In this document: positions 31,863 through 33,450 of the stretch, piece after piece
Position numbering within the stretch: the first letter of the stretch is position 1
How the letters are laid out: each line of letters begins with the position of its first letter
Source of the DNA: Escherichia coli
Lineage (GTDB): Bacteria; Pseudomonadota; Gammaproteobacteria; Enterobacterales; Enterobacteriaceae
Strand: one strand, 5' to 3'
DNA length: 64,000 nt
Assembly: GCF_044647545.1 (NCBI RefSeq)
Contig: NZ_CP172818.1
Notes under the pieces: generated by a model
Seen by the model: the letters and a program-made list of their open reading frames with translations, nothing else
Databases searched by the model: none
Told to the model about the DNA's origin: nothing
Made by a program: the position numbers and the translations under genes

Positions 31863-33450
31863 TAATGTGGTTGAAAACAACTAAGCCCTGGGACACCTTT
31901 TTTATCACCACGTTCGTTAGGTGCTATCTTCCAGGAATTTAGCCCCATGATATAATTATCAATTTTTTGATGCTGATCTACCCCTAATCCATAATGGCCA
32001 TATTTCTGTTTATTTTTTTGAGCGTCTGTCCACATTTGAAGATATCTTCAGGTTTTGGTCTGAAAGCAGTAGTGTTATTAAAATAATTGTCATATACAGG
32101 TGTGGATGCTATAGCATTGCTTCTAATTAGATGGATAAGACGATCATCCATGTGTTGTTTATGTTTTTTATTAAATATATTTGCTAATTCCTCAGGATCA
32201 ATTGGGTCTTTCATCTGATTAAATGGAACCTGCAAAGCACCTAGACAATAACATTCATTTTCTTCATTTCTTATTATTCCGTGATGACTGGTTAAAACTT
32301 TCGTTTCTGAGTCATAATTACAAACATCGAGCGTTTTAATTAAGTTATATGTATCACCGGAAGAGAGTTTATGATTTGCTAGTCGGGCACTATAGTTACC
32401 ATTAAAATTGATTTCATGATTTCCAGCCAGAACGACGACATTTTTATTTATACGACTATCTTTATTACCCTCCATATTTCGCATAGAATTTAGCAAAGTA
32501 AGGATATATTTATCACCAAAAATAGTACTAAATCTATCGCCTGTATGATCCCCAAGGAAGATACAAGGGGTAATCGCATCGCCTTTTAAAAAAACATGTT
32601 GATGCAACTCATTCAAAAACATGTCTCTCTTATCTAATAAAGTGAAGAGTTTTTTCAATTTTTTATTTTCATATGCGAATGAAGCCATGTCTTCGTGTTT
32701 TAATAAATCACATAATAAACTCCACCCCTTTTCCCTGATGCCTATATGCCCTGAAACGAGCAATGCATAAAGTACAGCGCCTACTCTTCCATCTGTATCG
32801 CCAAAATAAGCCGTGTTGGCATTTTGTGGGTTAATCACACCGCACTGTTTATAAAAGTCTATTTTTGAAAAAACAGATTCAACATAGCTATCAAACTTTT
32901 CCTTAGTAAACGTCTCTTTAGAGACAGCCCAACGCCAGTCAGGTTTGAAATTACCACTAAGAAGAGTAAAGAAATTTCTCTCTATGATAGAAAACCCATC
33001 AACTTTATAAATTATGTCTGATTTATCACCGGAGAAATTAATAAAATAATAACCGTCCTTACGCTCAATCGTAACGGTAATGGGAGACGATAATTTTATC
33101 ACATGGTTATTGTCTGGTATAATTGTAAAGATAAACGTGTCAGTAGTATTATCGGCGAAACTATTATATTCTTTAATATTTATAGATGGCTCACTATTGT
33201 AAAACCATATTTTTTCTATCTGAGAACTATGTTCAGTTACGTTCCAGCAGCCATGTTGCAGGAAATAGATGATATGCAGGCCAAAATCGTTATCTATTTG
33301 CAAATGTTTATCCAGCTTATCAATTTCAACTATCTTTGAACGATGTTTTTTATCAACCTTGCCATGGTGTTGATGACTGTTAACTTTATCTGAATGCTTA
33401 TCTTGATGGTTTGAAGAGATGTGCTTAAATATATTGTGAAATACTTTCAT
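31863..33450 (-). pseudogene. yhiL: YhiJ paralog (yhiL-like) with C-terminal frameshift
   Basis: ORF 31984..33534 (start trimmed to MKVFHNIF at 33450); the last ~40 codons continue in another frame (GLGVDQ... to stop near 31863), paralleling the YhiJ C-terminus. Confidence 0.7.

Follow-up and report, generated by a model that had tools for sequence, protein, structure and literature searches.

A one-base frameshift near the 3′ end of yhiL in one Escherichia coli assembly, distinct from the K-12 lesion

When the reading frame of a little-known gene breaks off shortly before its expected end, does the break record a pseudogene inherited from a common ancestor, a fresh loss, or a slip in the assembly? 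The question is raised by yhiL, a minus-strand gene between yhiJ and yhiM, in a stretch of 64,000 nucleotides of Escherichia coli DNA (contig NZ_CP172818.1, assembly GCF_044647545.1), which as a whole is called the window here. In this copy of yhiL the frame is thrown off near the 3′ end by a single missing base. Either a dispensable and frequently inactivated gene has suffered an ordinary, private frameshift of one base, or the assembly is wrong at this point; in both cases the lesion is distinct from that known in K-12. We give a probability of about 50% to the reading that it is a very recent loss-of-function mutation, independent of K-12, in a dispensable, AT-rich, horizontally acquired and repeatedly inactivated gene.

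The anatomy of the lesion follows from comparison with intact copies. Of 5,426 complete RefSeq E. coli genomes, 4,196 matched a 2-kb query taken from the yhiL region, and 4,158 had a full-length match. FDAARGOS_497 came first (100.0% identity, with 2,002 bases against 2,001 in the query). The yhiL of that genome is annotated as an intact DUF4049 protein of 529 residues, WP_022646230.1, from which the start of yhiL in the window (ATG at 33450) was set. The two copies are nucleotide-identical over the gene and the flanking backbone, except for one base that the window lacks, and as a consequence the window encodes 479 native and nine aberrant residues instead of 529. Across the compared backbone (window 1339-18212 and 24662-49500) the two genomes differ by no substitution and one indel, the yhiL base, in 41,713 bases. 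To place the site, the window was aligned with ten alleles, that of FDAARGOS_497 among them; the position is unambiguous because the missing base belongs to no run. The features concerned are the following.

Between 32012 and 32013, minus strand: the lesion, one base absent (C on the plus strand, G on the coding strand).
32013..32019, minus strand: a run of seven A on the coding strand (A7; T7 on the plus strand), directly 5′ of the deleted base.
31984..33450, minus strand: the main frame of yhiL, 488 codons, with ATG at 33450-33448 and TAG at 31986-31984.
31987..32013, minus strand: nine out-of-frame codons after the shift, INRNMAIMD, followed by the TAG at 31984-31986.
31862..32035, minus strand: an open reading frame (ORF) in the second frame, 57 codons, MWTDAQKNKQKYGHYGLGVDQHQKIDNYIMGLNSWKIAPNERGDKKGVPGLSCFQPH, ending in TAA at 31862-31864.
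31865..32011, minus strand: the 49 codons of the true C-terminus, displaced into the second frame (residues K481-H529 in the intact protein), KQKYGHYGLGVDQHQKIDNYIMGLNSWKIAPNERGDKKGVPGLSCFQPH, followed by the TAA at 31862-31864.

On the coding strand the context of the lesion is CTCAAAAAAA[G]TAAACAG, with the absent base in brackets. The codons there read T L K K479 and continue with I N R N M A I M D up to a stop, in place of the intact T L K K S K Q K Y G H Y G ... Q P H. Within 31950-32080 the sequence with the base present reads CTCAAAAAAAGTAAACAG / AAAAAAAGTAAAC, and that of the deleted allele reads AAAAAAATAAAC. Taken together, the two frames are colinear with the 529-residue orthologue apart from a single one-base gap, as is expected of a frameshifted pseudogene. 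An earlier annotation of this DNA, made from the letters alone (the sequence-only reading), had ended the main frame at 31984..31986 and let a different frame carry on for some 40 codons, and both statements agree with the ORF listing: the enclosing minus-strand ORF (31984..33534) closes with a TAG at 31984-31986, and the second-frame ORF, which includes the peptide quoted in that reading, outruns this stop by 39-40 codons down to its TAA. The same reading had set the frameshift within 31863-31990, an interval that falls on the displaced C-terminal segment; the lesion is about 25 nt upstream of that interval and hence outside it. Its further proposal, a comparison with the yhiL alleles of other strains, is what brought out the single-base lesion relative to the intact FDAARGOS_497 and its absence from K-12.

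The nature of the displaced peptide was settled through the domains of the protein family. The gene is identified as the YhiL orthologue by an N-terminal DUF6860 domain and by its synteny between yhiJ and yhiM, and its domains and its paralogue are arranged as follows.

About 32959-33333, minus strand: DUF6860 (PF21661), yhiL residues 40-164, 269.8 bits.
About 32014-32826, minus strand: positions 1-280 of DUF4049, yhiL residues 209-479, by Pfam profile.
29978..31600, minus strand: yhiJ, an intact paralogue of 540 residues, directly downstream of yhiL on the same strand.

The whole of DUF4049 (1-333) is not contained in one frame, the main frame holding positions 1-280 and the other frame 287-333. 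The 57-residue second-frame peptide alone matches DUF4049 (PF13258) at positions 287-333 of 333 with 29.1 bits (E = 6.7e-7), where the gathering cut-off of this profile is 25 bits. The truncated ORF scores 483.7 bits and the intact orthologue 518.4 bits, so all of them, the tail included, are above the gathering score. The DNA of the tail is the same as in intact orthologues. Profile and alignment together identify the peptide in the other frame as the genuine C-terminal end of the family. The sequence-only reading had held that the tail parallels the C-terminus of YhiJ, a view to be abandoned by its own account if the peptide bore no significant similarity to YhiJ. A direct pairwise BLASTP of the other-frame peptide with YhiJ gave 7/25 identities at E = 1.5, which is not significant, and in this form the claim failed. 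Joining the two frames lengthened the alignment with YhiJ by 29 columns but added only 4 bits (215 to 219). Pairwise BLASTP to YhiJ was too weak as a test of the tail and was replaced by the family profile and the orthologue alignment; as sequence comparisons go, the convincing comparators for the tail are these two and not the paralogue. YhiJ has DUF4049 in common with YhiL, at 34-35% identity over about 340-370 residues and with the shared motifs GDTDG, GDxTGDRFS, GNHE, HHG, [GA]H[NHY]G and GLN[SA]. It differs in being intact in the window, in having no DUF6860 match in the Pfam profile search, and in its C-terminal extension, which is longer and different.

The deleted allele appears to be confined to this one assembly. 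A 171-nt query that spans the site had no ungapped match in the 5,426 complete E. coli genomes; it had 196 records at 99% identity or more, and among the matches listed 60 of 60 stood at 99.4% with a one-base gap. By exact protein look-up, the 488-residue form was found on one NCBI contig and the intact 529-residue form on at least 1000 contigs. Among JGI metagenome contigs the deleted junction had no match, and the intact junction was found on 12. The deletion is in no other genome searched and is, therefore, not an inherited pseudogene state. The sequence-only reading, which took yhiL for a pseudogene or the source of a truncated product, holds in that the sequence as it stands has a frameshift near its 3′ end; the inherited state does not hold, and the frameshift may be an assembly error.

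What would be lost with the tail can be gauged from conservation and from a predicted structure. The DUF4049 family is tiny: 50 matches were found among 1.84 billion representatives, mostly fragments from E. coli and Shigella, besides YhiJ and one relative of 720 residues with 34% identity. A homologue search intended to give a diverse alignment returned just near-identical E. coli YhiL. In the family alignment (full-length numbering) the invariant columns are H430, Y456, R464, P465, E468, C473, L477, Q482, H486, G488, G490, G503, L504, N505 and Q527. The last eight of these 15, from Q482 on, fall past K479, and the motifs they form in the tail are GH[YHN]G and [LM]GLN[SA]. A full-length AlphaFold model was unusable (predicted local distance difference test, pLDDT, 45), and the structural results rest on a model of the domain only (residues 200-529; pLDDT 73.5, predicted template modelling score 0.79). 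In this model four β-strands are predicted for the lost tail, and they are part of the core sandwich. With the invariant motifs and the four predicted strands gone, the 488-residue product is probably inactive or unstable.

The domain model also suggests what the protein may be. In Foldseek searches its best structural matches were all metallophosphatases of the PPP type, namely WipB (5nny, E = 1.2e-5) and WipA (5y9o/5n6x, E = 1.6e-5 to 2e-4), and the modelled DUF4049 would have the β-sandwich fold of metallophosphoesterases. In sequence, matches stayed below threshold (Metallophos E = 0.0064, WipA_Phos E = 0.042, T4SS_Wip E = 0.0052, Mre11 E = 0.23); PF00149 was approached by YhiJ alone, at 17.4 bits against a cut-off of 21.5, and PDB sequence searches with single sequences and with a profile gave nothing significant. 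The motifs GDHTGDR and GNHE are present, but motif I reads GDTDG, with D in place of the histidine of DxH. On the strength of the model, the DUF4049 domains of YhiJ and YhiL are predicted to be PPP metallophosphatases resembling WipA and WipB, the PPP-fold Legionella Dot/Icm effectors (5n6x, 5y9o, 5nny). The comparison is made by way of a predicted model, at a sequence identity of only 15-17% and below family thresholds, and YhiL departs from these effectors in its motif I without the DxH histidine. In WipA, C-terminal edge strands complete the active site (PMC5454105). The literature search found no paper that mentions DUF4049. We know of no activity, metal binding or secretion for YhiJ or YhiL.

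Put together, these observations are consistent with a simple course of events. A coding-strand G would have been lost between 32013 and 32012, right after the A7 run, in a deletion private to this strain. Translation would then shift frame after Lys479 and run through nine wrong codons to the stop at 31984-31986. The real last 49 codons, which extend to 31862, would remain intact in the other frame but could no longer be read, and the 488-residue product, deprived of the last four predicted β-strands and of the invariant GH[YHN]G and [LM]GLN[SA] motifs, would most likely be inactive. For the deletion to be a mutation it has to be present in the cells and not just in the assembly, and this we infer.

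A good deal weighs against that reading, most of it in favour of a sequencing or assembly error, in which case the organism has an intact 529-residue yhiL as FDAARGOS_497 and many strains do. We hold an error of this kind to be a serious contender, with a chance somewhat short of even. The sole difference in 41.7 kb is an indel, with zero substitutions, where real divergence usually gives more substitutions than indels. The site adjoins an A7 run in a homopolymer-rich gene; of the 51 backbone runs of at least six bases, 10 fall in yhiL, which accounts for just 3.8% of the backbone. The allele is found in one assembly alone (0 of 5,426 complete genomes; 0 against 12 metagenome contigs). In the same window, the chu cluster resembles low-quality sequence, its 71 indels being small and clustered and 38 of them homopolymer-associated. 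The same run also shows an A7-to-A6 change in P0164 (Logan ERR10498737), an error-prone assembly in which yhiM is fragmented. In addition, the inactivity of the truncated product is a prediction, drawn from conservation and the structural model. An error is made less probable by the identity of the deleted base, a G that flanks the run and leaves its length unchanged, by the clean state of the remaining backbone, including 14 other runs of at least seven bases, and by the character of the affected gene, which is dispensable and often inactivated. The yhiL region has no match in about 23% of the complete E. coli genomes searched, and the genome-reduced strain DGF-298 lacks the region that contains yhiL (PMC10652928).

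If the deletion is real, the 488-residue product might nevertheless be functional, should the C-terminal 50 residues be dispensable. It can be argued for this that the extreme C-terminus varies between alleles, with 18-nt and 3-nt indels nearby, and that pLDDT falls below 50 over the last ten or so residues of the model. The lost H486, G488, G490 and G503-L504-N505 are, however, invariant even in the 34%-identical relative of 720 residues, and the four predicted strands would be taken from the core sandwich. A working truncated protein is, for these reasons, given a slim chance, and loss of function stays the preferred outcome of a real deletion.

Slimmer still is the chance that the frameshift is compensated in expression, which would make the allele leaky or switchable and not null. 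The deletion lies directly at the A7 run, where a one-base correction restores the frame. This might occur by slippage of RNA polymerase on A7 (+1 A) or by a −1 slip of the ribosome on AAA AAA, and some full-length protein LKKNKQKYGH..., that is, with S480N, would result. A-runs and tRNA-Lys are slippery in E. coli, as in dnaX and insertion sequence (IS) elements, but efficient transcriptional slippage occurs at runs longer than A7. Programmed −1 and slippage sites (dnaX A AAA AAG, IS elements) resemble the yhiL site in having an A-run at which a one-base correction restores the frame, but the yhiL site lacks the heptamer, the structure and the conservation of two frames. Its heptamer is C AAA AAA (zero frame C AAA AAA A) and not X XXY YYZ, and shuffled sequences fold as well as the 106 nt downstream of it do (minimum free energy z-score −0.22). 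Every close relative encodes the protein in one frame, without a conserved two-frame arrangement, which indicates that nothing has selected for recoding. Programmed −1 frameshifting was rejected on these three grounds: no canonical heptamer, no downstream structure, no conserved two-frame layout. A reversible switch, in which slippage or a later gain of one base in the run restores the S480N protein from a real deletion, is just as improbable. If it existed, a WipA/WipB-like metallophosphatase, repeatedly turned off at homopolymer tracts in E. coli lineages, would be expressed at a low level or in a phase-variable manner.

There remains the relation to K-12, in which yhiL is a known pseudogene: that of MG1655 is annotated as "frameshifted", and older annotations divide it into two genes, yhiL and yhiK. 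The window is not K-12, and its yhiL region is 90.1% identical to that of K-12 over 2 kb. The K-12 lesion is a contraction of A8 to A7 at the equivalent of window 32257, about 245 nt upstream of the deletion in the window, and its first stop comes at codon 413. At 32257 the window reads GAAAATGAATG, in frame and without the K-12 contraction, and the base deleted in the window is present in K-12. The two cases are alike in the gene, in the yhiJ-yhiM locus and in being a one-base deletion at an A-run; they differ in the site and in the allele lineage. The lesion of the window, as the alignment of alleles has it, arose independently of the K-12 lesion. That the frameshift is the same inherited, fixed pseudogene state as in K-12, as the annotation of K-12 yhiL might suggest, can be dismissed as next to impossible, since the alignment of alleles rules it out: the two are just 90.1% identical, the window stays in frame where K-12 does not, K-12 retains the base that the window lacks, and most sampled genomes are intact, three of four K-12-like alleles among them. 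The sequence-only reading had called its pseudogene consistent with that of K-12, and of this there stands only that K-12 yhiL is frameshifted as well, at a different site, in a different allele and by an independent event.

Losses of yhiL are not limited to these two. The A8-to-A7 contraction is common to K-12, MY1-8 and EH41, and the intact K-12-like allele of strain E89 has A8. In EH41 an internal stop is found in addition to the contraction, and in strain 2013C-3277 a third lesion, T7 to T8, is found at the equivalent of window 32595. Among 15 annotated genomes sampled down the match ranking, yhiL was intact in 11 and a pseudogene in four. The gene has been lost repeatedly and independently across E. 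coli, mostly at homopolymers, and the window is one more case at a new site. The RefSeq label "YhiJ/YhiL family protein" fails as a marker of pseudogenes, as E89 and others so labelled are intact. As a separate observation, yhiJ is partial in E89.

For the biology of E. coli, a further frameshift in a dispensable y-gene, which may exist solely in the assembly, changes nothing. In annotation, yhiL should be flagged as frameshifted at 32012/32013 and kept apart from the K-12 pseudogene. Of greater use are two by-products of the analysis: the recurrent, independent inactivation of yhiL at different homopolymer tracts across E. coli, and the fold prediction for DUF4049, which offers a hypothesis on YhiJ and YhiL that biochemical assays can test. 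This fold assignment and the odd chu region are of more interest than the frameshift itself.

The yhiJ-yhiL islet (window 30000-34000) has 31-39% G+C as against about 55% in its flanks, which is typical of horizontally acquired, H-NS-bound DNA, and yhiL and the yhiL/yhiM spacer are listed among the H-NS-bound "promoter islands" (PMC3661553). A promoter and terminator scan around yhiL was uninformative. A perfect 12-bp inverted repeat, GATTGTAGAGGC ... GCCTCTACAATC, with a loop of 13 nt, lies in the yhiL-yhiJ spacer at 31762-31798, past the stop of yhiL and ahead of the start of yhiJ; the terminator scan did not call it because it has no T-tract. Chimeric proteins of the two paralogues are encountered in public assemblies (P0137, P0157, P0170), one of them of 430 residues with a YhiL-like N-terminus and a YhiJ-like C-terminus, others being small ORFs in which the YhiL tail is fused to the N-terminus of YhiJ or to sequence from the spacer. 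These suggest deletions or recombination between yhiJ and yhiL, or assembly chimeras.

The chu heme-uptake cluster (53369-61010) is wrecked relative to FDAARGOS_497. After dctR, at 53369, about 1.4 kb is absent (chuS and the 3′ end of chuA), and the next 7.6 kb carries 62 substitutions beside the 71 small indels. The differences are strongly clustered, with 59% of the gaps between neighbours at 10 nt or less (16% expected if evenly spread), and stop at the chu/yhiD border, both flanks being 100% identical to FDAARGOS_497. The window holds no intact chu ORF, and its version of chu is in no complete RefSeq E. coli genome. Neutral decay in situ was rejected on account of flanks without any substitution; an indel-to-substitution ratio above 1 together with these clean flanks rules out ordinary divergence as well. 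This leaves three candidates for the region: sequence of low quality, an imported copy already decayed, and local hypermutation.

Elsewhere in the window, rhsB (18279-22514) is interrupted. Compared with K-12 RhsB (1411 residues), to which it is 95% identical in amino acids overall, it has a short out-of-frame stretch that introduces stops at codons 383 and 397 and leaves two ORFs, one of 382 and one of 1002 codons, that share a frame. The segment 18216-24649 holds rhsB-yhhH-yhhI, 96.9% identical to K-12, where FDAARGOS_497 has hicAB. At 49500-50339, between arsC and slp, the window has about 840 bp in place of the genes for an ArsR/SmtB regulator and a permease in FDAARGOS_497.
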